Source: an uncultured virus (IMG/VR IMGVR_UViG_3300042879_001731) (taxonomy: Duplodnaviria > Heunggongvirae > Uroviricota > Caudoviricetes). Taken from it: a DNA stretch of 64,000 nucleotides. The notes beneath the pieces were generated by a model. That model worked only from the letters and a program-made list of their open reading frames with translations. It had not been told where the DNA came from and did not search any database. Below are positions 1 to 40,466 of this stretch, one piece after another (position 1 is the first letter of the stretch; every line of letters starts with the position of its first letter). Made by a program: the position numbers and the translations under genes. The stretch lies in the IMG/VR virus record IMGVR_UViG_3300042879_001731; one strand, 5' to 3'.

Positions 1-240
1 TGCATCAAGCCAAAGAAATGGAGAAAAACAATATATGTGATGCTTGGGATAATGGATATGATAAAGGAACAAGAGATAGGATTGAAAAAATATCAAATCC
101 AGTTGGCAATGCAGAACAATACTACAATCAAACCTATAAATCGGAGTAAGATGAAAGAAGATAAATTTTTAATAAAATCATTGTTGTTAATTATAATCTC
201 AACAATATTAGGAGGGTTAGTTTATTCGTTGTTATTTAAA
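1..240. repeat. Direct repeat copy 1 (copy 2 at 30659-30898)
   Basis: 1-127 identical to 30659-30785; about 6 substitutions over the remaining ~113 nt. Confidence 0.97.
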
Positions 241-250
241 AACTATTAAG

Positions 251-415
251 ATGCCAGATATAGCAATGTGCAAGAATGAGACTTGCAAACTAAAAAAAAA
301 ATGTTACCGATATATGGCAGAACCATCTAAATATTGGCAGACATACGCAGACATAAAGCCTAACGAAAAAGGCGAATGTGATTACTTTATAAAATATATA
401 AAACCAAAAAAATGA
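251..415 (+). CDS. Small Cys-rich phage protein (54 aa, MPDIAMCKNETC...)
   Basis: Read manually; four Cys; stop overlaps the next start (ATGA). Confidence 0.65.
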   Translation: MPDIAMCKNETCKLKKKCYRYMAEPSKYWQTYADIKPNEKGECDYFIKYIKPKK

Positions 416-3735: not shown

Positions 3736-3924
3736 ATGTATTACAAATCAACAAACAATTACTATTTAATTAGCTGCAAAATTATTGATGATCCAGTTTC
3801 TGGAATATTAGGAATAGATGCAACATATTCAAATGGATTAATAGAACGAACTGAATATTTTAATATAGGTGAAAATATACCTACAATTCTTAATAACGAT
3901 GGCAAAAGAATTACCTTACTATAA
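3736..3924 (+). CDS. Hypothetical protein
   Basis: ORF track; ATG at 3736 after the leader. Confidence 0.5.
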   Translation: MYYKSTNNYYLISCKIIDDPVSGILGIDATYSNGLIERTEYFNIGENIPTILNNDGKRITLL

Positions 3925-4537
3925 GCACGAACCTTCTGAATGGTTAGAAGGAGAAATACAAATTTGTTCAGATGAAGCTATTGTATGTTTTATTAATTTA
4001 TGTTCAGGATATTGGTTGAAATTAGGATGCATGAGTTATGCATTTGCATTGCAAAAGTATTGCAGACGTAATGGAAATATATTGCAAGAGTTAGTTGATG
4101 CTGGTATGGTTGATTTAAATAATGAAAATATTTCAATAAAATTCCTTGACAAACAGCTTTCAGAGTTTAATAATGTTAGCGAAAAACGCAGTAAAGCTGC
4201 ACAAAAGAGATGGTCAGATGCAAATGCATTGCAAGTGCAATCCAAAAGCAATGCTATAAGAGAAGATAAGATAAGAGAAAAGAATATATTTATACCACCT
4301 ACATTTAATGATGTTTTAGAATATTGTATGCAAAGAAAAAATAATGTAGATATAAATAAATTTATAGACTTTTATGAATCTAAAGGTTGGATGATTGGTA
4401 AAAATAAAATGAAAGATTGGAAAGCATGTATTAGAACATGGGAAAAAACTTCGATAGAAGCTCCTAAACAACAAGCTAAATCTGAAGATCAAATAAGATA
4501 CGAACACGTAATGAAACAAATGGAACTGAACAAATGA
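3899..4537 (+). CDS. Phage replication initiator (lambda O/DnaT-like)
   Basis: MAKELPYYK N-terminus; C-terminal FIPPT...FIDFYESKGW...KDWKACIRTWE; directly upstream of helicase. Confidence 0.75.
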   Translation: MAKELPYYKHEPSEWLEGEIQICSDEAIVCFINLCSGYWLKLGCMSYAFALQKYCRRNGNILQELVDAGMVDLNNENISIKFLDKQLSEFNNVSEKRSKAAQKRWSDANALQVQSKSNAIREDKIREKNIFIPPTFNDVLEYCMQRKNNVDINKFIDFYESKGWMIGKNKMKDWKACIRTWEKTSIEAPKQQAKSEDQIRYEHVMKQMELNK

Positions 4538-5472
4538 TACTACAAAACGGACATAGCACACAATATCTAAACGACTATAAAAACGGGAAGATATCTCAAG
4601 GCTTGGGTATAGGATGCGTATTAGATGAATATATCAGATTTAAACGTAAACAACTCAATATCGTTTTAGGACATGATAACGTAGGTAAATCATATTGGAT
4701 GGAATGGTATTTCCTTGCGTTAGCTACTAACCATGATTTAAAAACTGTTGTTTGGATGGGTGAGAACTCAAGTGGTCAAGTAATGCGTGATTTGATACAG
4801 ATGTACTCAGGCAAACATTTTAAGGATTTAACTTACGATGAGATACGCAAACACGAATCATTTATTGAATACTATTTTAAATTCTTAAGCAATGAAAAAT
4901 TATACAAACCAAAAGAGGTTTTAGATATAATTGGTTCTACAGATGCTGATGTAGGATTTATTGACCCATTTACAGGATTAGATAGAGGTATGCAGCATTC
5001 AGATAACTATGAGTTTTTAAATACAACACGGCAATTTTGTAATCAAACTGGAAAGACTTTATATGTATCAACACATCCTAATTCAGAAAGTGGAAGAAGT
5101 GGTATGTTATACGGAGATGATTTTCCTGAATGGAAAGGACATTTAAAACCACCACTTAAAGCTCATATAGAAGGAGGAAAACCTTTCTTAAATCGTTGTG
5201 ATGATATGTTAATCATTCATAGATTAGTTAAACATCCTACAATGAAATATTCTACAATGATAGATATAGAAAAAATAAAAGACAGAGACACTGGTGGACA
5301 GTGTACTGAATTAGGTGTGCCATTACTATTTGATTTCAATAGTGGGTTAGGTTTTAAGATTGGCGGTATTGACCCTATAAAAAGACGAAATAATCCGATT
5401 AATAACGAAACACAATCTTTTTACAGGATATTAGAACAGAATGCTAACTTTGACGATCAATTACCTTTTTAA
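4534..5472 (+). CDS. DnaB/RecA-fold (SF4) replicative helicase
   Basis: Walker A GHDNVGKS, Walker B GFIDP, STHP, KIKDR. Confidence 0.8.
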   Translation: MILQNGHSTQYLNDYKNGKISQGLGIGCVLDEYIRFKRKQLNIVLGHDNVGKSYWMEWYFLALATNHDLKTVVWMGENSSGQVMRDLIQMYSGKHFKDLTYDEIRKHESFIEYYFKFLSNEKLYKPKEVLDIIGSTDADVGFIDPFTGLDRGMQHSDNYEFLNTTRQFCNQTGKTLYVSTHPNSESGRSGMLYGDDFPEWKGHLKPPLKAHIEGGKPFLNRCDDMLIIHRLVKHPTMKYSTMIDIEKIKDRDTGGQCTELGVPLLFDFNSGLGFKIGGIDPIKRRNNPINNETQSFYRILEQNANFDDQLPF

Positions 5473-5481
5473 ACACGAACT

Positions 5482-5745
5482 ATGGTAGATTACACATTAG
5501 CATTAATAAACATAGACCTAACAATAAACAAAATGTTGTTCAGGCTAAAATTAGAGGATTTAAGCGACAAAAAAAGAAAAGGAATACAAACTATCATCAA
5601 AGACTTAGAAAAGGCTTCAGAAGTCATTAAAATGCAAAATACAGAGATAGAATACCAAATACAAACTAACTCGAAATTGTATTTAGAGAATCTAAAGCTA
5701 AAAAGAATGATAGAAGAACTAACAAAAACAGGACTTGAATTATAA
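5482..5745 (+). CDS. Hypothetical coiled-coil protein
   Basis: ORF track; its TAA stop is the TAAC of hairpin site 1. Confidence 0.7.
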   Translation: MVDYTLALINIDLTINKMLFRLKLEDLSDKKRKGIQTIIKDLEKASEVIKMQNTEIEYQIQTNSKLYLENLKLKRMIEELTKTGLEL

Positions 5746-5833
5746 CGTTTTGCGTATATGTGCAGTACGCATAGATGGAACTTTAAATTAACAACAAATG
5801 CCGAAAGCGTATTGCACATATACGCTGTTAGGC
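5740..5833 (+). repeat. attC-like hairpin site A1 (long)
   Basis: ttataac, 19-bp stem 5752-5770/5807-5825, gttaggc (fits GTTRRRY). Confidence 0.85.
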
Positions 5834-5845
5834 GCAGTTAAAATT

Positions 5846-6070
5846 ATGGAAACGAAAGAAATAATAAAATTGATGTTGAAATCATCAGACCACAACCCAT
5901 ACACAGGGATGTTATCAAAGAAAGACAATTTAATCGCAGCGATTGACTTGGCTAAATTGTGTAAAGACTTTGCAGATAAAGGACAAATGGACGAAGCAAT
6001 GAACATTGAAAGTGAACAATGGGTTGTGGTCATTTCTGAACTCGAAGGTATGTCGCTTAATTGCGCCTAA
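5846..6070 (+). CDS. Cassette gene, hypothetical protein (METKEIIK..., 74 aa)
   Basis: Single ORF between sites A1 and A2; stop lies in gcctaac. Confidence 0.75.
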   Translation: METKEIIKLMLKSSDHNPYTGMLSKKDNLIAAIDLAKLCKDFADKGQMDEAMNIESEQWVVVISELEGMSLNCA

Positions 6071-6196
6071 CGTTTTGCAGATAAGCGAAGGCAAAGATTT
6101 AGAAACTAAAATTTTAACTTTAAAACAAATTTAATTATGAAAACGAGAACATCAATTTACCACAGAACCTTTGCTTTTGCTTATGTGCTGTTATAA
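6065..6196 (+). repeat. attC-like hairpin site A2 (long)
   Basis: gcctaac (fits RYYYAAC), 20-bp stem 6077-6096/6169-6188, gtta at 6190. Confidence 0.85.
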
Positions 6197-6264
6197 GCTG
6201 GCTGCGGATTATTAACTAAAAAATTAAATTGAAGCACTAAACAAAAGAATTAAAAAAAAGAGGG

Positions 6265-7038
6265 ATGGAAATAAATAAAATATACAACGAGAATTGCCTT
6301 GATACAATGGCTAAAATGCCTGATAATTTTATTGACTTAACTGTTACTTCACCGCCTTATGACAATTTGAGAACTTATAATGGCTATTGTTTTGACTTTG
6401 AAAATGTAGCTAAGGAACTTTACAGGGTGACTAAGGAACAAGGTGTTTTGGTTTGGGTAGTAGCTGATTCTGTGATAGATGGCTCTGAAAGTGGAAATAG
6501 TTTTAGGCAAGCATTGTATTTTAAGGAACAAGGATTTAACCTGCACGATACAATGATATATCAAAAAAACAGTTATCCGTTTCCGCCTACAAACAGATAT
6601 TATCAGCAATTTGAATATATGTTTGTTTTTAGCAAAGGAAAGCCTAAAACTACTAATTTACTAAAATGTGAAAGCGGTAACAAAAAGCGTAAATCTACAC
6701 AAAGGAATAAGGATGGAACGACAAGTTCATTTACATCAGAAGGTAACAAAGAAAGGATAATGGACAATGTTTGGATTGAAGATACTGGATATATGAGAAC
6801 GACAAAAGACAAATACGCATTTAAGCACCCTGCAATGTTTCCTGAAAGTTTATGTGAAAAACACATACAAACTTGGAGCAATGAGAGTGATTTGGTTTAT
6901 GATTGCTTTATGGGAAGCGGGACAACCGCTAAAATGGCAATTTTGAATAATAGAAAATATATTGGAAGTGAGATTTCAGAAGAATATTGTAAGATTATCG
7001 AAACTCGTATTAAAGAGTGCGGTGGGCTTTTTTTTTAA
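6265..7038 (+). CDS. Cassette-borne beta-class amino-DNA methyltransferase (N4-mC/N6-mA)
   Basis: TSPPY catalytic motif, HPAMFP, DCFMGSGTT SAM-binding motif. Confidence 0.93.
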   Translation: MEINKIYNENCLDTMAKMPDNFIDLTVTSPPYDNLRTYNGYCFDFENVAKELYRVTKEQGVLVWVVADSVIDGSESGNSFRQALYFKEQGFNLHDTMIYQKNSYPFPPTNRYYQQFEYMFVFSKGKPKTTNLLKCESGNKKRKSTQRNKDGTTSSFTSEGNKERIMDNVWIEDTGYMRTTKDKYAFKHPAMFPESLCEKHIQTWSNESDLVYDCFMGSGTTAKMAILNNRKYIGSEISEEYCKIIETRIKECGGLFF

Positions 7039-7086
7039 TTCTTTTGAAACGAAATTGTCAAACGAAGCAGGAACGTAGCAGCTTGC

Positions 7087-7156
7087 TTATAACACAAAAG
7101 CAGGCGCAGTATTATTGCGCTTGCTGACTGTTAGAAAGCCGTTTTAATGGCGTAAA
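7087..7156 (+). repeat. attC-like hairpin site A3 (short, putative resident site)
   Basis: taac 7090...gtta 7133; homologous to 32039-32105 including downstream cgttttaatggcgtaaa. Confidence 0.85.
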
Positions 7157-7171
7157 AATTAAACTTAGATT

Positions 7172-7696
7172 ATGAAAAAATGCCGTAACTGTCAAGAAAG
7201 ATTTAATCCTATACGTTCAACGCTTGAAAAGTATTGCCAAAAAGACGAATGTATCAGAGCAATGGTCTGCGAAACAAAAGCGAAACTCTGGAAGCAGAAT
7301 AAGAAAAAGATGAAAGAGGATATAATGACTGTTCAAGACTACATGAAAGTAGCACAGCAAACTTTTAATAAATATATCCGTCTTCGTGATCAAGGAAAGA
7401 ATTGTATTTCATGTGGCAAAATCCCAAAGAAAGAGAACGCAGGACATTTCTATTCAGCTGGAACACACACAGCAGTAAGGTTTGACGAACGAAATGTACA
7501 TTTACAATGTGAACACTGTAATTCATATTTGAGCGGAAACTTATTAATGTACAGAGACAACTTATTAATTAAGTTGGGATATGAAGAATTTGAACGTTTA
7601 ACAGTTGAAGCTATGTTAACACGAAAATACACACGAGAAGAATTAAAAGAAATAATTAACACATATAAGTTAAAAATAAAATCGTTTAAAAGTTAG
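7172..7696 (+). CDS. ninG: NinG/Rap-like HNH junction endonuclease
   Basis: FNKYIRLRD..CISCG...AGHF...RFDERNVHLQCEHCN. Confidence 0.9.
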   Translation: MKKCRNCQERFNPIRSTLEKYCQKDECIRAMVCETKAKLWKQNKKKMKEDIMTVQDYMKVAQQTFNKYIRLRDQGKNCISCGKIPKKENAGHFYSAGTHTAVRFDERNVHLQCEHCNSYLSGNLLMYRDNLLIKLGYEEFERLTVEAMLTRKYTREELKEIINTYKLKIKSFKS

Positions 7697-7738
7697 ACTA
7701 TATAAACAATAAAACTATATTTGACAAAAAATAACACT

Positions 7739-8047
7739 ATGAAAGATTACGACAGCTTTAGAATTTATGACTTTACTGGATTCGAGAAAGAGTTTGAGTT
7801 CAGCATGAAAGTAGACGGAAAGTGGCAAGATTTTACCTGTACTGCTGACTTCCGCGTTGTATATGATACACCTTCAGATAATTTCAATATGATCTTGGAT
7901 AAGGCAAAAGTGACGATGTACGATGCAACTAAAGAAGATTATGTGAACTATAGCCTAAATAAAGACGAATTCGATACCTTACAGGCTTGGATGCATGATT
8001 CAACTCATTGGGATGAGTATTATGAGTATATGAACTATAACGATTAA
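7739..8047 (+). CDS. Hypothetical protein
   Basis: ORF downstream of TATATTTG at 7716-7723. Confidence 0.65.
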   Translation: MKDYDSFRIYDFTGFEKEFEFSMKVDGKWQDFTCTADFRVVYDTPSDNFNMILDKAKVTMYDATKEDYVNYSLNKDEFDTLQAWMHDSTHWDEYYEYMNYND

Positions 8048-8192
8048 GCTATGTTTTTATATTTCTTAGTAATATCCTATTTGTCCTTAGTGTTTTCATA
8101 TATTTCATATAAGACAGAAAATATTATCTTTGCGTGTATCTTGTTAATCATAGCAGGTTTAAATTTAATTTGTTTAACTATATCTTGTTTCG

Positions 8193-8414
8193 ATGGCGGT
8201 GACTATAACATTTAACGACGAAGACCACAAAGAAGCTATAAACGCATTGAAAGTTAATGATTTTATACACTGTATGTGGGAGCTTGACCAATGGTTAAGA
8301 GCGGAATGTAAGTATAATGAAAAGCGAACAGAAAAAGAGATTGATGCTTTATATGAAGCAAGAGAAAAGCTCAATGACTTACTATACGAAAACGGATTAA
8401 AGCTATATGAATAA
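8193..8414 (+). CDS. Hypothetical protein
   Basis: ORF track. Confidence 0.7.
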   Translation: MAVTITFNDEDHKEAINALKVNDFIHCMWELDQWLRAECKYNEKRTEKEIDALYEAREKLNDLLYENGLKLYE

Positions 8415-8583
8415 GAAACAATACCTTCAACTACTACGTGAATACAGGGCGCATCGACGGTCAAAAGACTGGGTGCGCTCTTGGTTTTTTACGTCGGATC
8501 AAACTTATCCGTATTTACAGTTTATAAGGCTAAATCCTGAGGAATGAGAAAGATTTATAAGGCTATAACTTTAATTTGGCTAT

Positions 8584-9144
8584 ATGTCATCAATAGAATT
8601 TACAGAAAGGTCGACTGATTGGCTTAATAAAGTAGCTAAACATCATAAATTTTTTGTTGATGTTGTAGAGGGATTCGGAGAGAAATTCTACGCTGAAGAT
8701 ATAGTACAAGAGATGTACATAAGATTACATAAATACACTACATGGGATAAGATAGTAAAAGACGGAGAGGTTAATAAAGGCTTTATTTGGTTTGTGCTTC
8801 GTAATATATATGTGGATTTCTGTAAGCAAAAGAGTAGAATTGACAAGTGTGATTTAAACGAAGCTATATATGTATATGATGATAAGCAAGAAAAAGACGA
8901 ATCAATAGCTAAAAACGAAATAGATTGCAAGGTAGAGAAAGAAATAAATAGATGGCATTGGTACGACAAGATGTTATTTGAGCTTTACAGAGATTCAGGA
9001 ATGAGCATGAGAGAAATGGAATCAGCAACTAAAATAAGTCTTACATCTATATTTCATACGATTAAGCATTGTAAGCAAAGATTGAAAGAATCGGTAGGTG
9101 AAGACTACGAAGATTACAGGAACGGAGATTTTGAGTTATTATAA
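8584..9144 (+). CDS. ECF-like sigma-70 family sigma factor
   Basis: AEDIVQEMYIRL (region 2) and LFELY..GMSMREM...ISLTSIFHTIK (region 4 HTH). Confidence 0.85.
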   Translation: MSSIEFTERSTDWLNKVAKHHKFFVDVVEGFGEKFYAEDIVQEMYIRLHKYTTWDKIVKDGEVNKGFIWFVLRNIYVDFCKQKSRIDKCDLNEAIYVYDDKQEKDESIAKNEIDCKVEKEINRWHWYDKMLFELYRDSGMSMREMESATKISLTSIFHTIKHCKQRLKESVGEDYEDYRNGDFELL

Positions 9145-10637: not shown

Positions 10638-10639
10638 AT

Positions 10640-11842
10640 ATGTTTAAAGTAACTACATCAATTAGGAAGATTCTCGCCCTGAAGAATCGTATTAAGATTA
10701 TACAGGGTGGAACTTCCGCTCTTTAGTCCCCTCTGAAAATAGTAGGAGGGGACGACCATGCAGGTAAGACGTTCGGTATTCTACCGATACTCATAGACAA
10801 AGCAGCAAGGCATTCAGGACTTGAGATAAGTGTAGTAGCTGAAACTATCCCACACTTACGTAGGGGTGCTTTAAAAGACTTTCTAAAGATAATGAAGTGG
10901 ACAGGTAGATACAATGATGAACACTTTAATAAATCACTTTTAAGATACGAATTTGGAAATGCAAGTATTATTGAATTCTTTTCGGCTGATGATAGTAGTA
11001 AGCTACGTGGTGCTCGTAGGGATATTTTATATATTAATGAGTGTAACAATGTCACTTTTGAATCGTATAACGAACTTGCTATTCGTACTAAAAAAGAAAT
11101 TTACTTAGACTTTAACCCAGCTAATGAGTTTTGGGTGCACACGGAATTGAAAGACGAACCTGATTCAGATTTCATAATTCTGACCTACAAGGATAACGAA
11201 GCCTTAGATCAATCCATAATAGACCAAATAGAAAAGAACAAGGAAAAGGCGAAGACCTCAGAGTATTGGCGTAATTGGTGGAATGTTTATGGATTAGGAT
11301 TGGTAGGAAGCCTTGAAGGAGTAGTTTTTAACAACTGGAAGTTAATAGATACCATACCTACCGAAGCAAGGTTGATAGGAATAGGCTTAGACTTTGGTTA
11401 TAGTGTTGACCCTACGGCAATAGTAGCTATATATACATACAACGGTTTACGAATTGTAAAGGAATTAGTTTACAGAAATGGAATGTTAAACACAGATATA
11501 GCAAGAGAATTGCCTAAAAATGTTGCTGTATATGCTGATAGTGCAGAGCCTAAAAGTATTGAAGAAATAAGAAGACAAGGAATAACGATAAAAGGCGTTA
11601 CAAAAGGTAAGGATTCTATCAACTACGGGATAGACGTAATGCAAAGACAAGAGTATTTAGTAACGTCAGACAGTACTAACCTCATCAAAGAGCTTCGTTC
11701 GTATTGTTGGGACACTGATAAGACAGGAGTGAGATTAAATAAACCAGCGGGAGGGAACGATCACATTATAGATGCACTACGTTACCACGAGATGGAAACT
11801 TTAGGATTAAATTCAAGTTATGGGACATACGCCATCCGTTGA
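10640..11842 (+). CDS. terL: Terminase large subunit (PBSX-like), interrupted by a 42-nt insert with in-frame TAG
   Basis: ATG 10640 in frame with ORF 10892; QGGTSA-[insert]-GKT Walker A, LYINE Walker B, DFNP, GLDFG, DHIIDALRY nuclease motifs. Confidence 0.9.
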
Positions 11843-29279: not shown

Positions 29280-29318
29280 CTTTGCTTATCATAAAATTTT
29301 TGTTAGGTCATAGTGTTT

Positions 29319-29342
29319 AAGCCCTCTTCGGAGGGTTTTTTT
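29319..29342 (+). terminator. Rho-independent terminator (UUCG loop)
   Basis: gccctc ttcg gagggt plus T-run. Confidence 0.85.
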
Positions 29343-29384
29343 ATTGTCAACAATCAAGTGTTAATTATTTTTTTGTTAAAAAAC

Positions 29385-29416
29385 TTGCAGTTATTAACAG
29401 AATGTATTTATATTTG
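29385..29416 (+). promoter_or_regulatory. Host-sigma early promoter
   Basis: TTG near 29385 and TATATTTG 29409-29416 ahead of small early ORFs. Confidence 0.7.
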
Positions 29417-29439
29417 TCGAAACAATTAAAGAAAACACT

Positions 29440-30334
29440 ATGAAAAAACAGTTAAAAGAAGCTCAAATGCTTATCCTAAGAGCAAGTCAGCTTTTAGAAA
29501 TTTGTGAAGAAGCACAAAAGAAGGTTGATTATATGTGTAGATGGAATGTAGAAACAGCAATTCCTAACGGATTTGATATTCATTCTGACGAAGACATAGA
29601 ATTCCAACAAAAAGTAGTAGAACGTATTTGGAGAAGCTACAAAATCTTAGTAACTAAAATTAATGAGACAGCACTATGAAATCAATTAATCCATTCAAGA
29701 AGGTAACAGAGGCATTTAATCAGCATATAAAGCCTACTATATTAGAAAACGAGTTCATACCTAATAACGGAGTGAAACACGGAGACTTAAAAAGGTATTG
29801 GAATAATTACAATGCTCAGTTAGTAAACAGAATTTCAGAAATAAAAAGCTATGAAAAGACACTTTGAACAAATTACAGAATTAGAAGAAGCTGAATGGAA
29901 TTTAGCATTATCAAAAAAACAATATGAAAGGTGTAAGATTGCTATTGAAACAGGAAACTGGGAAGGTTATCCTGAATCTTTAAAAGGAAGAAAACAAACA
30001 TTATCAATGCTAAAAGAAATTATTGAATTATTAGAACTTAAAATAGAAAAATTAAAATGAAAAAAATACTACATTTTTTCGGTTTAGAAACTCGTGAAGA
30101 AATTATGGAGTTTAAACAAAGAAGAGCAGCAAAACCTTTTTTAATGATGCTTAAAAGAATTACTGAATTAGAAAACAGAGTTAAACAATTAGAAGATGAA
30201 AAGCTATAAAATAACGTACAAGGTAAAAGTAAAGGAGTGGGAAACTCGCTATTTAATAGTAAGAGCCTATACAAAAGACGAAGCTAAAGAACGCTTCACA
30301 ATGTGGAAAGGATTAATAACAGATATAAACGAGA
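29440..30334 (+). other. Run of small coupled early hypothetical ORFs (29440-29679, 29676-29867, 29851-30060 and shorter ones)
   Basis: Overlapping start/stop codons. Confidence 0.65.
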
Positions 30335-30567: not shown

Positions 30568-30807
30568 ATGAAAACAGCATTACAATGGTTTATTCAACAA
30601 ATAAAATATATAAATATAATTGTACCAAAAGAAAATTCAGATAAACTTTTATCAATGATGCATCAAGCCAAAGAAATGGAGAAAAACAATATATGTGATG
30701 CTTGGGATAATGGATATGATAAAGGAACAAGAGATAGGATTGAAAAAATATCAAATCCAGTTGGCAATGCAGAACAATACTACAACGAAACCTTTAAATC
30801 AGAGTAA
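30568..30807 (+). CDS. MKTA...EQYYNETFKSE family small protein
   Basis: Spans the repeat junction; paralog of 2706-2915. Confidence 0.8.
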   Translation: MKTALQWFIQQIKYINIIVPKENSDKLLSMMHQAKEMEKNNICDAWDNGYDKGTRDRIEKISNPVGNAEQYYNETFKSE

Positions 30808-30898
30808 GATGAAAGAAGATAAATTTTTAATAAAATCATTGTTGTTAATTATAATCTCAACAATATTAGGAGGGTTAGTTTATTCGTTATTGTTTAAA
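30659..30898. repeat. Direct repeat copy 2; junction between phage A and phage B
   Basis: Matches 1-240. Confidence 0.97.
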
Positions 30899-30908
30899 TA
30901 TTCATAAA

Positions 30909-31097
30909 ATGAAAGATAAACATGCGATAATTTTAATACCTCCAATAGGAATTATGGTTAAGGAGGTCGAGATGTATATATATATGAAGACCGGACGAAA
31001 GGTAAATATAGTTTTTAACAATCCATTCCACATGCATGAACATATTGAAATGCTGAGGGATGCATATAAAATTATTAAAACAGATGAATTCAGGTGA
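30909..31097 (+). CDS. Hypothetical protein, homolog of 11820-11996
   Basis: Shared YI..KTGR.V.I.F.NP motif. Confidence 0.7.
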   Translation: MKDKHAIILIPPIGIMVKEVEMYIYMKTGRKVNIVFNNPFHMHEHIEMLRDAYKIIKTDEFR

Positions 31098-31380
31098 CAA
31101 AGTGATATGCATTGATGATAGTATCAGAGTTGATGTAATGCCAACTATAGTTAAGTATTATAAAAACTGGGTAAATAAAGATCAGGTATATACCGTTAGG
31201 CATGTCGTTGACAACGATGGAATTGTAGATGGAGTGCTACTAGAGGAGATACATAATAGTCCTATTTACATCGAGCTTATTGACAAGAATCAGGAGCCAG
31301 CGTTTGGCATGTTCAGATTTGCATTGCTACAGGAAGATAAAGTATTAGAAAATGCAGAATATTTTTTAGAGATTTTATGA
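31084..31380 (+). CDS. Hypothetical protein (SH3-like GDKVICID start)
   Basis: ORF track; start moved to 31084. Confidence 0.65.
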   Translation: MNSGDKVICIDDSIRVDVMPTIVKYYKNWVNKDQVYTVRHVVDNDGIVDGVLLEEIHNSPIYIELIDKNQEPAFGMFRFALLQEDKVLENAEYFLEIL

Positions 31381-31470
31381 AAAAGATCATTAGGCCTATA
31401 GAAAAGAAAAGATATAGGGATCAATTAATGTGGAATTATTTTATAGATTTATTAATTAAAAACACAAGTT

Positions 31471-31761
31471 ATGAAAAAAGAAAAAATAGATCAGGCTATG
31501 TTGCACTGTTACAGGCAGCTCTTCGCTCATTCGAATCCTCCGGCAGACTTTGACAAGTTAGTTGAGAATGCCACTATAAACGATCGAGGTCAAAAGGAGA
31601 TACCTTTTATGGACTACGAGATAGACGAAAGTTTATTTGAGTCTATAGTAGATCAGACGATAAAAGACTTTAAGATCAAGCCAGAGCACACGAGGAAGAG
31701 TTTTAGAATAGCTATACTCTTGGGCTGTTCACCAAAATTTAAGAGAGATGAAAATAAATAA
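31471..31761 (+). CDS. Hypothetical protein
   Basis: ORF track. Confidence 0.7.
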   Translation: MKKEKIDQAMLHCYRQLFAHSNPPADFDKLVENATINDRGQKEIPFMDYEIDESLFESIVDQTIKDFKIKPEHTRKSFRIAILLGCSPKFKRDENK

Positions 31762-32041
31762 TACAAAATGGTTGTATACGGACAAGGCTGGCAGGGAACA
31801 CGAGGTAAAGTTTGATGATTGTGAAAAAGAAAATTTCTGCGATGAGGTCAAGAAGCATGATGCACACTACGACAATACGAACGGAAGTCTGTACAAGTTT
31901 GCTGAGGACTACGGGCTGAATGCGTATGAGTTCGACATAATTAAACGCATTACAAGATGCCGAAAGAAGGGTCAGTTTAAGGAAGACCTAGAGAAGACAA
32001 AGAGAGTTATTGATTTATATCTTAATGAGTTTATTAGCTAA
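31748..32041 (+). CDS. DUF3310-like (T7 gp1.7-like) protein
   Basis: AHY...IIKRITRCRKKG...EDLEK; its stop is the TAA of the hairpin site. Confidence 0.65.
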   Translation: MKINNTKWLYTDKAGREHEVKFDDCEKENFCDEVKKHDAHYDNTNGSLYKFAEDYGLNAYEFDIIKRITRCRKKGQFKEDLEKTKRVIDLYLNEFIS

Positions 32042-32105
32042 CACAAAAGCAGGGATTGTTTTAATGATCCTTGCTAACTGTTAAAAGTCGTTTTAATGGC
32101 GTAAA
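32039..32105 (+). repeat. attC-like short site B0 (apparently empty)
   Basis: taacacaaaagcagg...cttgctaactgtta...cgttttaatggcgtaaa, homologous to 7090-7156. Confidence 0.85.
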
Positions 32106-32128
32106 TTAATTAATTAAAAACAAAAATT

Positions 32129-32506
32129 ATGAAAGCTTGGAATGATTTAGAAAAAGAAGTAAGCCTGTATTGGACAGGTGACGACAAAAATCCAGACAGT
32201 TATTGGTATATAGATCATGGCGTGAAGATAGAGAGATTTAAAGATGGACATTTTGAACTGTCCAACGCCATGGCATCAGGTGATTTTTATAAGCCTTTAA
32301 GCAAAGACCAGGTAGAGGTATTTGAAACTGAAGGATGGTTAAAAGGTTGTTATAAAGTATGCATAGATACATATTCAATTAGACTTTTTAACTTAGAGAA
32401 GTTAATTCTTATGAACCCTGAGAGCGATGAACTTATTTTTCGTAAAATTAATATCGAAAAAAAGATAAAAAGATATCTTGAATTAGTAGATAATTTAGTA
32501 ATTTAG
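32129..32506 (+). CDS. Hypothetical protein
   Basis: ORF track. Confidence 0.7.
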   Translation: MKAWNDLEKEVSLYWTGDDKNPDSYWYIDHGVKIERFKDGHFELSNAMASGDFYKPLSKDQVEVFETEGWLKGCYKVCIDTYSIRLFNLEKLILMNPESDELIFRKINIEKKIKRYLELVDNLVI

Positions 32507-32521
32507 TAACCCGTTTTGCTA

Positions 32522-33364
32522 ATGTACTCTTCAGGATATATATATAAGATAACATCACCATCCAATAAAATATATATTGGACAAGCAGTTAATATATCTA
32601 GAAGAAAAAGCAGGTATAAATCTTTTGACTGTAAAGAACAAACAAAGCTATATAGATCTTTAAAAAAATATGGTTTTGAAAATCATAAGTTTGAAGTTAT
32701 AGAGGAATGTGCTTTTGACCATTTGAATATTAGAGAGAGATACTGGCAAGAATTTTATGAAACTTTAGGCATCAATGGATTAAATTGTTTTTATGTTGAG
32801 ACGAACAATCTTCCAAGAATTGTTTCTGATGAAACTAAACAAAGAATTAAACAAGGATTAGTTGGAAAAATTAAATCAGGAAAAGATCATTATGCTTTTG
32901 GTAAAAAACTTACTGATGAACAAAAAGAATTCTTATCAAGAATAAACACTGGTAAAAAGATGCCAAAAAGTGCTATAGAAAAAATGACTGGAAAGAATAA
33001 TCCTAACTATGGCAAGGCACTTCCTGAATGGCATAAGAAAAGATTATCTGAACTTCAGAAGGAAAGATTCAAGGACAAGTCTAATCATCCCTTTACAGGA
33101 AGAAATCATAAAGAAGAATCAAAACAAAAAATGTCAAACGCCAAAAAAGGCATAAAACTTAATAAAGAATGGAGAGATAAAATAGTTGAATCAATTAAAG
33201 ATAGATACTGCGAATATAAAGACAAGATAGTTCTTGACTTAAGTACAGGTATTTATTATTACAATTGTGCTGATGCTGCTAGATATAATAATATGAATAG
33301 CACAACATTATCACATATGCTCGTAGGAAGCAAAAGAAACAAAACAAATTTAATTTACGTTTAA
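32522..33364 (+). CDS. GIY-YIG homing endonuclease (NUMOD3-like repeats)
   Basis: GYIYKITSPSNKIYIGQ, RERYWQ, HKEESKQKMS. Confidence 0.9.
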   Translation: MYSSGYIYKITSPSNKIYIGQAVNISRRKSRYKSFDCKEQTKLYRSLKKYGFENHKFEVIEECAFDHLNIRERYWQEFYETLGINGLNCFYVETNNLPRIVSDETKQRIKQGLVGKIKSGKDHYAFGKKLTDEQKEFLSRINTGKKMPKSAIEKMTGKNNPNYGKALPEWHKKRLSELQKERFKDKSNHPFTGRNHKEESKQKMSNAKKGIKLNKEWRDKIVESIKDRYCEYKDKIVLDLSTGIYYYNCADAARYNNMNSTTLSHMLVGSKRNKTNLIYV

Positions 33365-33374
33365 TTTTAATTTT

Positions 33375-33857
33375 ATGAAAAAACATTGGAGAAATTTGAT
33401 TCAAGATCAAAAGTATTTAGGTTCTTGGGATTTAGAAGCTGATGGCAAATATTCATCTGTAGTTGTAACTATTGATAGAATTTATGTTGGGGACTTTTCA
33501 TCGCAGGGAGGAACAGAGAAAAAGCCATTTGCAAAACTAAAAGAGTTTGAAAAGCCAATGGTACTTCAGGCTGAAAACTTCAAACGACTAGAAAACTTTT
33601 TTGGATCATTTGATTACAACACATATGTTGGAAAGCAAATAGTTTTAGGTGTAGAGTCAATAAAATTCAAAGGAGATATTGTTCCTGCATTGCGTTTCAG
33701 TACTCGGCCGTTACCTGTAGCACAGAAGCCTGAGCTTCCTGCTGCTGCGCTTACTAAAGCTATTGAGTCCGTTAAGTCTGGCAAGCGATCTATAGAGGAT
33801 ATCGAGGCCAAGTACTCACTTACTGCTGATCAGAAAGAAGCCATTTTAAACGCATAG
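33375..33857 (+). CDS. Putative ssDNA-annealing/binding protein
   Basis: Upstream of exonuclease; C-terminal domain similar to that of the ERF at 862. Confidence 0.6.
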   Translation: MKKHWRNLIQDQKYLGSWDLEADGKYSSVVVTIDRIYVGDFSSQGGTEKKPFAKLKEFEKPMVLQAENFKRLENFFGSFDYNTYVGKQIVLGVESIKFKGDIVPALRFSTRPLPVAQKPELPAAALTKAIESVKSGKRSIEDIEAKYSLTADQKEAILNA

Positions 33858-39607: not shown

Positions 39608-39738
39608 TATATAACGGCTGACGCTATACGAAGGTGGGGATTAAAAGTACTGAACCCTGACTTACCACAAAAGTAAATTAGAAGTACTAATGTACAAATT
39701 TGGCACACAGCCCCACTTTTGTATAGCGTATGTTATAG
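39608..39738 (+). repeat. attC-like hairpin site B1 (long)
   Basis: taac 39612, 19-bp stem 39621-39639/39711-39729, gtta 39732. Confidence 0.85.
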
Positions 39739-39757
39739 GCTGTAAAATTTACGGATT

Positions 39758-40015
39758 ATGAAACAAGAATATCCAAAGAAAGAAAAAGTTTATGTAGTTG
39801 CAACACACCATTACTGTTTTAGAGTAGGTGAGCCATCTGAAATAATTGGCGTTAAAATGGGGCAACCTGACGAGAAATCAAAGCCAAGATTGGTTTATGA
39901 AGTAGAATATTCAGATGGCGTTAGAGATGAAATATGTGTATCTGAAATAGGAATGAATTATCAACTACTGACTTTTGCTGATGTTAAAAGTGGAAGGTTT
40001 AATACGGAGCAGTAA
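39758..40015 (+). CDS. Cassette gene, hypothetical protein (85 aa)
   Basis: Single ORF between sites B1 and B2. Confidence 0.8.
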   Translation: MKQEYPKKEKVYVVATHHYCFRVGEPSEIIGVKMGQPDEKSKPRLVYEVEYSDGVRDEICVSEIGMNYQLLTFADVKSGRFNTEQ

Positions 40016-40033
40016 GGTAGTAAATTTTATTGC

Positions 40034-40161
40034 CTATAACGGTGAATTATTGGAGCAGTTGCCCATCAAAATATTGACAAACTTAAATTGAAACACAAAT
40101 GATAAAAAAACCACAGAACCCCGATACGAAGGAGGCAATTGCTTCCAATAATATGTTAGCT
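40034..40161 (+). repeat. attC-like hairpin site B2 (long)
   Basis: taac 40037, stem 40046-40063/40134-40152 with bulged T, gtta 40155. Confidence 0.85.
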
Positions 40162-40206
40162 TTTGGTTTTTGGCGAAACCTCAAATGCTATTTAGAACTG
40201 CCATTT

Positions 40207-40413
40207 ATGAGTAAGTGGAGAAGGAGAGAAAAAATTACACACATACCGATATGCTTAGGGCTTACCGTTTCGTGGAGTGATTACGACTTTGAATTGTGTG
40301 ATATGGAAGAATACTTTCCGAGAGGCAGAAAAGACGGTAAGCATAGATTGACTATATCGTGTGGAATTTTTTATTGGTGGATACGACTAACTTTCTATTC
40401 GCCAAAAACTTGA
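40207..40413 (+). CDS. Cassette gene, hypothetical protein (start may be 40099, inside the site loop)
   Basis: Single ORF between sites B2 and B3. Confidence 0.6.
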   Translation: MSKWRRREKITHIPICLGLTVSWSDYDFELCDMEEYFPRGRKDGKHRLTISCGIFYWWIRLTFYSPKT

Positions 40414-40466
40414 AGCTAACAGTCGCATAGGCATCCGCTTTAGTGGTGCTTATGCTTTGTTATGTG
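40414..40466 (+). repeat. attC-like hairpin site B3 (short, putative resident site)
   Basis: taac 40417, gcataggcatccgct/agtggtgcttatgc, gtta 40459. Confidence 0.8.

Follow-up and report, generated by a model that had tools for sequence, protein, structure and literature searches.

A hairpin in a phage genome, probably an empty recombination site within an integron-like system of gene cassettes carried by phages of Bacteroidota-type hosts

A short hairpin at positions 32039 to 32083 of the DNA analysed here (site B) is probably, at odds we put near 75%, an orphan recombination site that holds no cassette and belongs to an integron-like system of gene cassettes found in phages of Bacteroidota-type hosts. 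In the mechanism we propose, exchange would occur on the coding strand, within the AAC that lies at the hairpin's 5' foot. A cassette entering the site would be inserted between the ..TAA of the upstream gene and the C of the resident site, leaving the resident hairpin on the 3' side of the cargo. Where the upstream gene takes its stop codon from the TAA of TAAC, such an insertion would keep that stop intact. In related phages, a putative recombinase would act from just 3' of an array of sites, its gene preceded by an attI-like sequence that forms no hairpin. Searches of 66 window ORFs against Pfam and of 30 against PHROGs gave no tyrosine recombinase, nor did a search of a complete record of one of the two phages concerned, and the sites would therefore depend on supply in trans (from a co-infecting phage or the host) or be relics. 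Site B may still be active.

Site B and its relatives in two phage genomes

The whole stretch of DNA that was analysed, hereafter the window (64,000 nt), consists of two phage-like genomes, phage A and phage B. An IMG/VR record of 32142 b that is rated complete (G001) corresponds to window positions -802 to 31339 and is the complete record of phage A.

1 to ~29300: phage A, with ERF, exonuclease, SSB, N6/N4 methyltransferase, NinG, terminase, structural genes, M15 lysin and exonuclease (Pfam/PHROGs)
~29440 to 64000: phage B, with primase, helicase and two GIY-YIG endonucleases, and crAss-type muzzle proteins on the - strand (Pfam/PHROGs)
5482..5745, + strand: gene X of phage A, 87 aa; its TAA stop falls in the first TAAC box (5743-5746), which marks the left edge of the variable cargo
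5798..6070, + strand: ORF of cassette 1, phage A, 90 aa from an ATG in the hairpin loop or 74 aa from 5846; its stop lies within the TAAC of site A2
6265..7038, + strand: cargo of cassette 2, phage A, an N6/N4 DNA methyltransferase (PF01555, E 2e-47)
7172..7696, + strand: NinG/Rap junction endonuclease, the backbone gene 3' of the phage A array
31748..32041, + strand: ORF upstream of site B, 97 aa, PHROG 25460 with no assigned function; its stop codon is the TAA with which the site's TAAC box opens
32129..32506, + strand: ORF downstream of site B, 125 aa, beginning MKAWNDL; it also directly follows a B-like site in the related sequence L032

A Pfam family match was sought for the cassette 1 ORF and none was found. 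Searches of a phage-genome collection with 31000-33400 and with 4600-8000 returned only distant single-gene matches.

A scan for AAC...GTT hairpins gave 13 matches over both strands of the window, versus 1-5 in 10 mononucleotide shuffles. Seven sites lie on the + strand.

5743..5830, + strand: site A1, a long hairpin with a 19-bp stem and an in-frame ATG at 5798 in the loop; its right end, GTTAGGCGCA, is complementary to TGCGCCTAAC before A2
6068..6193, + strand: site A2, a long hairpin (20-bp stem) whose right end, GTTATAAGC, can pair with GCTTATAAC just ahead of A3
7090..7156, + strand: site A3 (7090-7133) with its conserved flank, a terminal, receptor-type site that is constant in all phage A relatives regardless of cargo
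32039..32083, + strand: site B, an unoccupied attC-like hairpin in which TAACA (32039-32043) pairs with TGTTA (32079-32083) and the inner stem joins 32048-32057 to 32066-32075
32084..32105, + strand: conserved flank 3' of site B, common to A3; it holds a 17-mer (32089-32105) and the mini-hairpin GYC-GTTTTAAT-GGC
39612..40462, + strand: second small array, in phage B, with sites 39612-39735, 40037-40158 and 40417-40462 and ORFs 39758-40015 and 40099-40413 between them

On the + strand, site B consists of a 5-bp TAACA/TGTTA stem, a 4x3 internal loop and a 9-10-bp stem that contains a conserved G:T pair at 32052/32071; its loop is rich in TTTTAA. Folded as DNA, the + strand reaches -5.6 kcal/mol (z -2.0) versus -4.1 (z -1.05) for the - strand. 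The initial annotation, made from the sequence of the window alone, had placed a site at 32039-32105 overlapping the stop codon of a core gene. The sequence reads as quoted there, and TAA 32039-32041 does end the ORF 31748-32041. The description of that ORF as a core gene is not supported: its homolog is located elsewhere in six of seven more distant phage B relatives. In two of these seven (L131 and L136), the gene that precedes this ORF in the window abuts the MKAWNDL gene, with zero sites between.

The proposed homology between site B and A3, downstream flank included, was borne out when the two halves of the window were compared by blastn: 7090-7162 (A3 with its flank) and 32039-32113 are 81.6% identical over 76 nt, one of just four similarities detected between the halves. 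The flank 17-mer occurs in exactly two copies in the window, at 7140-7156 and 32089-32105, with up to 3 mismatches allowed (shuffle mean 0.22). It is also present in 42 viral-contig loci, and in other sites of the attC-like phage family it forms the apical loop and arm. A scan of genome contigs with the 17-mer gave 76 loci, most of which we read as matches due to chance or to a coding motif conserved among Cytophagales/Sphingobacteriales genes; one locus (L046) holds a clear family site and three (L060, L077, L095) a possible one.

Comparison likewise established covariation within the stems. Across six distinct B/A3-type sites, seven of ten inner-stem pairs have changed on both sides and 97.8% of cells are paired; the covariation score, the percentage of cells paired and the number of both-side changes were each reached by 0/500 shuffles, and the count of further pair types was matched by 43/500. 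In nine sites of the TAACG class, 10/12 pairs have changed on both sides, with a covariation score again reached by 0/500 shuffles. The apical stem of site B is thus different from that of A3 yet self-complementary through compensatory changes, as the initial annotation had observed, and these changes favour the proposed fold. Site B is one of a large family of attC-like sites that occur in freshwater and marine phages whose hosts are of Bacteroidota type. A homolog of A1 (76% over 113 nt) lies within the array of another phage record, G002, which also holds the flank motif of the window. The family has departures from its usual form: the first site of L025 has no hairpin (TAAC + 7 nt + GTTA), and in L037 the hairpin is inverted, which places A:C on the + strand.

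The suggestion that short sites are resident receptors and long ones mobile is not supported by the wider sample, in which 29/207 unique sites in recombinase-linked arrays are 60 nt or shorter and short sites stand before cassette ORFs in the L017 array. The true mark of receptor-type sites may instead be the base after AAC, which is A in A3, B and 40417-40462, versus G in 191/207 unique array sites.

The A3/B site is not ancestral to the backbone: in L147 gene X abuts NinG with no site between them. Junctions lie at start-codon microhomology (ATGAAA in L131 and L136) where the A3/B site and its flank are missing, and likewise in L147; ordinary phage mosaicism therefore also moves these pieces.

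Cassette borders, cassette ends and the neighbouring recombinase

Allele comparisons established where the junctions lie. Between L015 and the window, homology ends at 5749 and resumes at 7089, with 562 different bases between (1339 nt in the window). For L025, L038 and L040 it ends at 5755 and resumes at 7088, with 419 bases between. The backbone therefore retains gene X up to its TAAC, and A3 as a complete hairpin. Differences among the three phage A cargo alleles are confined to the interval from the TAAC at 5743 to that at 7090, and each allele has a first hairpin of its own; gene X (80-100% identical to the window copy) is followed by three different first sites, and A3 is constant. Cutting 5746-7092 out of phage A leaves ...TTATAA+C-ACAAAAGCAGG, the stop-plus-site arrangement predicted by the initial annotation. 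Contigs matching 4800-8000 in four lake metagenomes from four studies gave the same picture: one is the 562-nt allele with borders 5749/7089, others diverge directly before 6067/6068 or directly after 7093, and contigs from other lakes have in common with the window only 6067-6200.

A phage A relative with an empty site was sought among 80 NinG loci and none was found. The corresponding search for a phage B relative with a cassette at site B gave L032, in which the order is: homolog of the upstream gene, TAAC, a site with a 19-bp stem, GTTATGGGCAGTAAT, a Mom-family ORF (PF25680, E 5e-34), ATTATTGCCCATAAC, a B-like site, the flank and the same downstream gene. The Mom cassette lies exactly between TAAC and the B-like site, and its trailer is complementary to its leader at 14/15 positions. 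L032 is the occupied allele of site B that the initial annotation had proposed to look for.

Isolates of the Polaribacter phage Freya, whose flanks are 100% identical, have gained and lost cassettes. Freya_9 is Freya_10 without 3794-4100: the hairpin that the cassette carried upstream of its gene has been lost with it, and the last site is retained. Empty alleles that keep the long first site had been named in the initial annotation as a refuting outcome. The parental contexts ..ttaccAAC|GTTCTACAG.. and ..ttgctAAC|ACCCCTAT.. yield the product ..ttaccAAC|ACCCCTAT.. (Freya_9 reads AAC|ACCCC). Junctions of the same type occur in Freya_5 and Freya_1, so that all three mapped Freya junctions fall inside AAC. 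In Freya_1, the empty allele, the recombinase gene directly follows the resident sequence. Across the four independent comparisons (phage A alleles, L032, Freya and lake contigs), every junction maps to the coding strand's 5' AAC; the right-arm GTT, where breakpoints at G|TTA had been named as the contrary outcome, has none. Of the crossover at TAA|C proposed in the initial annotation, the left TAAC box stands; as to the exact bond, sequence places the cut only within AAC. By analogy with IntI, which cuts between A and C (Nivina 2016, PMC5027507), the scissile bond would be AA|C.

Comparison also established the anatomy of the cassettes. The cassette ends in the window are complementary over 10, 9, 9 and 8 nt; in the phage B array, GTTATAGGC pairs with GCCTATAAC and GTTAGCTT with AAGCTAAC. 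In 43 arrays of related phages, contiguous complementarity between the right end of one site and the sequence before the next averages 10.8 nt and reaches at least 8 nt in 161/230 neighbour pairs, compared with 5.1 nt (15/230 at 8 nt or more) for the two ends of a single site and 5.3 nt (20/187) when the next site but one is used. Such pairing is a hallmark of integron cassettes and alone is silent on which side of the hairpin is cut. A cassette consists of its own hairpin site, a leader that begins with GTTA, a gene, and a trailer ending in ..TAA and complementary to the leader; in the circular cassette, the ends would pair as a 9-15-bp stem below the hairpin, akin to the R box of attC. The same leader/trailer frame surrounds different genes behind different hairpins (L003 versus G002), and A2-like hairpins are found with other genes in lake contigs. 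Given these mixed combinations of hairpin, frame and gene, 'hairpin + gene' is no indivisible unit. The first ATG of cassette ORFs is often within the hairpin loop. In L032 the Mom domain begins at residue 34 and a second in-frame ATG overlaps GTTATG, giving two candidate starts.

The L017 contig carries at least 10 sites followed at once by a gene for a 267-aa tyrosine recombinase, and in G002 an array at 4418-7816 precedes a recombinase gene at 7917-8720. The best family matches of the 267-aa protein are to the XerA, XerC and XerD models (XerA, 167 bits; cut-off, 220). Against the integron integrase model TIGR02249 it scores 153.8 bits in two stretches (cut-off, 265; profile, 315 positions), and every family match is below the cut-off of its family. 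Relatives of this recombinase occur in 228 viral stretches, of which the best 80 were kept, and 43 of these 80 have 4 kb on both sides. All 43 loci have at least two co-oriented sites upstream (255 sites upstream and 12 downstream in total, with up to 12 in 4 kb), and in all 43 the recombinase gene lies just 3' of the array in the same orientation, a link between array and enzyme that this comparison establishes. A conserved non-hairpin sequence beginning ..ATAAC-TAT.. lies ahead of the recombinase gene and is attI-like. Cultured phages with homologs are Polaribacter phages Freya and Leef and Cellulophaga phage Ingeline. When site-bearing records were searched for a tyrosine recombinase, one of five was positive. 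Two MAGs that hold a site encode recombinase homologs of 46-47% identity, with one nearby hairpin only, on the strand opposite to the recombinase gene. The 267-aa Xer-like tyrosine recombinase is the likely enzyme of the system and presumably acts on these sites.

Strand polarity and alternative explanations

The initial annotation had noted that nearly all stem mismatches in the window are G-T on the + strand, and had taken the sense strand as the folded one. We counted 13 G:T pairs and one other mismatch in the seven stems. Among 221 unique array sites scored strand-symmetrically, 309 mismatches are of the G:T type and 53 of the A:C type on the coding strand (263 G(5')-T(3'), 46 T-G, 28 A-C and 25 C-A), and an independent set of 50 sites gave 58 G:T versus 17 A:C. 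Folding energies compared by strand, a check suggested along with that claim, favoured the + strand in 7/7 window sites as DNA (sum -86.6 vs -71.4 kcal/mol) and in 6/7 as RNA. A scan that demanded a longer 5' spacer found 255 sites upstream on the recombinase strand, compared with 15 on the other. The bottom strand of classical attC sites, which is the one recombined, is marked by G:T pairs (1.24 vs 0.39 per site) and better folding (Nivina 2016, PMC5027507). By that yardstick the coding strand would be the recombined strand here, because the G:T pairs and the better folding are found on it; the G:T bias is equally compatible with a fold in mRNA. The sense (coding) strand is thus probably the strand that folds, as the annotation had it, and by analogy would also be the one exchanged; the signatures behind this are indirect but agree with one another, whereas the crossover position comes from direct comparison of alleles.

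A reading that keeps the classical integron polarity would make each hairpin the attC of the gene upstream, with a folded bottom strand and crossover at G|TT; site B would then be the attC of the ORF 31748-32041. We consider this extremely unlikely. The sites do have the layout of attC (AAC...GTT, two stems, internal loop), their left boxes often contain stop codons as in many integron cassettes, and the complementarity of cassette ends suits both polarities equally, but the comparisons speak the other way: of the two hairpins around the lost gene, Freya_9 has only the 3' one, a single backbone gene X precedes three different first sites with A3 constant, the window phage B has the B-like site and not the first site of L032, contigs that share the methyltransferase end diverge directly after the TAAC at 7093, and the G:T pairs are on the coding strand. 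In Polaribacter phage P12002L, such sites were classed as attC by tools of the IntegronFinder type (Qi 2023, PMC9892861), yet P12002L_attC1, a family member by its TCGTTTTAATG loop, was the one of six sites that IntI1 failed to recombine, according to the same paper. Replication slippage that needs no recombinase, in which the hairpin and the paired ends juxtapose two AAC repeats and the polymerase skips from one to the other, would leave alleles that differ by deletions only. Every junction does lie in a repeated AAC, often with similar preceding bases (for example ..attgttaccAAC and ..attgttgctAAC). What slippage leaves unexplained is that cargo of unrelated kinds occupies one position (methyltransferase, Mom, three phage A alleles) and that arrays of up to 12 sites per 4 kb lie beside a recombinase in strict orientation, and we regard it as very unlikely, although short direct repeats at a palindrome's foot are known to give rise to precise deletions.

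The hairpins could also act chiefly at the RNA or regulatory level, in processing or stabilising transcripts, as terminators, or in binding a regulator at the GTTTTAAT loop, with genes shuffled by homologous or microhomology recombination. Promoter-stem-loop cassettes have been reported in T4-type phages, and these sites would then resemble them. Such a role would account for a fold on the transcribed strand that tolerates G:U pairs (the + strand being favoured as RNA in 6/7 sites), for a loop/flank motif conserved across unrelated stems, for start codons within or just past hairpins, and for conserved leader/trailer frames around different genes; it would also accommodate relatives that lack the site and have junctions at ATGAAA, and the fact that most site-bearing phages searched have no recombinase. 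It accounts poorly for junctions in a 3-nt AAC between sites of unrelated sequence: homologous recombination has no substrate there. Nor does it give an obvious RNA role to the 9-15 nt of complementarity that is the rule at cassette ends, or explain a tyrosine recombinase after the array in 43/43 loci. Rfam searches at the gathering score found zero families within the window, and at E up to 1 the sole match in L017, L003, L032 and L053 was a tRNA in L003. We judge this explanation unlikely, and a role in RNA and one in site-specific recombination could coexist.

Two kinds of mobile element were also considered. A transposon with terminal inverted repeats is rejected, there being no target duplication around the GTTA...TAAC ends in the L032 sequence, and IS200/IS605-type single-strand transposition seems unlikely, as the two ends of each cassette pair together here.

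Returning to site B as an unoccupied site of an integron-like system, we can sketch a broader and tentative picture, whose odds we place a little short of even. Bacteroidota phages, from 30-kb siphoviruses to crAss-like and jumbo phages, would share an exchange system parallel to integrons, with a short Xer-like recombinase, a folded coding strand and a site ahead of each gene; sites such as B and A3 would be portable landing pads for picking up cassettes in trans at co-infection. If the coding strand is the folded substrate, each cassette would therefore carry its site, and often its own start region, before its gene. If this is true, landing pads would let phages without a recombinase gain anti-restriction cassettes (methyltransferase, Mom) in trans, which would explain how virulent phages of abundant aquatic Bacteroidota swap single anti-defence genes. 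Freya_1 to Freya_10, which are cultured and isogenic, already differ by whole cassettes and make the question directly testable.

Relation to integrons and other known systems

To our knowledge, no system other than integrons is yet well understood in which genes are collected and reordered by recombination of folded single-stranded hairpins, and cassette expression is held to require the strict bottom-strand polarity of integrons. A system with the same site logic but the opposite polarity, a recombinase below the IntI threshold and an array co-transcribed toward that recombinase would therefore separate the mechanistic necessities of integrons from their historical accidents. Site B helps to show that the cut lies on the side of the hairpin opposite to that used by bacterial integrons and, probably, that the opposite strand is folded.

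We compared the phage sites with the features of classical integrons as given in Nivina 2016 (PMC5027507). Both have imperfect AAC...GTT hairpins with two stems, an unpaired spacer and a variable loop (seven window sites, with covariation in two alignments); complementary ends of each cassette and crossover in the conserved AAC; one strand marked by G:T pairs and better folding; and arrays beside a tyrosine recombinase and a non-hairpin attI-like site, with small accessory genes as cargo. There are also differences. The recombined AAC of the phage sites is 5' of the hairpin on the coding strand, which is 'top-strand' recombination in classical terms and therefore puts each site upstream of its gene, whereas a classical attC is 3' of the gene, crosses over at its right end (G|TT) and is recombined as the bottom strand, an arrangement that the phage sites do not show. 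The phage-array recombinase, at 267 aa, falls below the TIGR02249 cut-off, a score that an IntI-type integrase reaches in addition to having the insertion specific to IntI. Classical intI adjoins attI at the insertion end and is divergent from the cassettes; the phage recombinase is likewise at the insertion end, but 3' of the array and co-oriented with it. Paired cassette ends span 9-15 nt in phages versus 7 in integrons; the asymmetry of the phage sites is in the spacer (4-5 nt vs 1-2 nt), that of classical sites in bulged bases of the inner stem; and the hosts of the phage system are phages. The system is integron-like in its working and stands outside the integrons by three criteria of membership: enzyme, polarity and gene order.

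Qi 2023 (Front Microbiol, PMC9892861) described integrase-less attC clusters (CALINs) in virulent phages with DNA methyltransferase cassettes, among them Polaribacter phage P12002L. The three sites at 5743-7133 and the three at 39612-40462, with no recombinase among the 66 ORFs screened, are CALINs by the same definition; site B itself is single. P12002L carries sites of the attC-like family described here on the coding strand of its early genes, and P12002L_attC1, as given in the supplement to that paper, has the same TCGTTTTAATG loop as the phage family sites. The sites were treated there as ordinary attC (bottom strand, G|TT) and assayed with IntI1; section 3.4 and the supplement give P12002L_attC1 as the sole site of six that was not recombined. 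A cognate Xer-like recombinase and reversed polarity are absent from the discussion in section 3.4, and the text of the paper contains neither 'Flavobacteri' nor 'Bacteroid'. Freya_1 to Freya_10 are cultured phages with the present system, and have 0 to ~10 cassettes before the attI-like sequence and the recombinase gene; their resident site is not a hairpin, unlike site B. Bartlau 2021 (ISME J, PMC8776804) read the Freya integrase as a sign of a possible temperate lifestyle, and the words cassette, hairpin, indel and 'variable region' are absent from its main text. Our full-text literature searches gave no description of a Xer-like recombinase with such arrays, nor of reversed polarity.

The system also has features of Xer/dif recombination. 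The recombinase best matches XerA, XerC and XerD, and the hairpin-less site of L025, with two 15-nt inverted arms around 7 nt, resembles a double-stranded core site. These matches are below their cut-offs, however, and the phage sites are long hairpins in arrays, in contrast to the single 28-30-bp dif site. The window sites, in a stretch where no recombinase was found, may belong to a phage system with the Xer-like recombinase: the TAAC(G)...GTTA form, the polarity and the end pairing are all present in them, and the A1 homolog and the flank motif link them to the array of G002.

Arrangement of the two phages and two of their ORFs

The phage A and phage B parts of the window meet in a short junction region, and two ORFs, one in each phage, are also of note:

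10638-11842: large-terminase ORF, phage A (only 316 aa; Pfam N-terminal domain match begins at profile position 66)
29280-29440: junction region between phages A and B
32516-33364: GIY-YIG/NUMOD3 homing-endonuclease ORF, phage B

The first 260 nt of the window (1-260) are repeated with 95% identity at 30659-30918, within the early region of phage B, and the IMG/VR record that matches phage A (G001) ends at window position 31339, in the same early region that holds this repeat. A and B may lie in tandem, or assembly may have joined them via sequence that they share.

The endonuclease ORF is absent from a close phage B relative (L032), whose homology skips from window position 32512 to 33360. 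The gene is a free-standing one that one of these two relatives has and the other lacks. A stretch of 254 nt with no called ORF precedes the large-terminase ORF; the terminase gene could be split or interrupted, or it may carry a frameshift.

A loop motif carried on unrelated stems

Unrelated stems at four loci (L017, L029, L039 and L003) carry one conserved loop motif, (C)GTTTTAAT(G), which also occurs as a mini-hairpin in the flanks of sites A3 and B (7140-7156 and 32089-32105). These observations suggest that the motif is a protein-binding element.

In genome contigs from Spirochaetia/Treponema (L053, L059, L068, L081, L085 and L120), two to three successive hairpins precede the match to the 17-mer of the A3 and B flanks. 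Their stems differ, and every loop is CGTTTTAATG-like (one reads CGTTTCAATG); the same loop motif is therefore reused in another phylum.

Cassette frames and variant sites

A common leader (GTTATAAGTATGTAAAACAAAAATTATACAA) and a common trailer (..ATTACTTATAAC) frame two cassettes with unrelated genes and different preceding hairpins, one at L003 (1474-1912) and one in G002, a phage record with a cassette array and an Xer-like recombinase (L122, reverse strand, 7158-7576).

At L037 (- strand, ~1167-1248), the 28-nt hairpin is the exact reverse complement of that in the L003-type site, with outer boxes unchanged; it is a flipped version of it. The terminal loop of A2-like sites (window 6093-6173) is variable: in contigs from three lake metagenomes, the stem is retained and the loop is swapped for 28-33 other bases. 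Lastly, the first site of a phage A relative (L025, 1820-1850) has no hairpin: it consists of TAAC, 7 nt and GTTA, and its 15-nt arms can pair with the end of the cassette. This hairpin-less site resembles a double-stranded core site.
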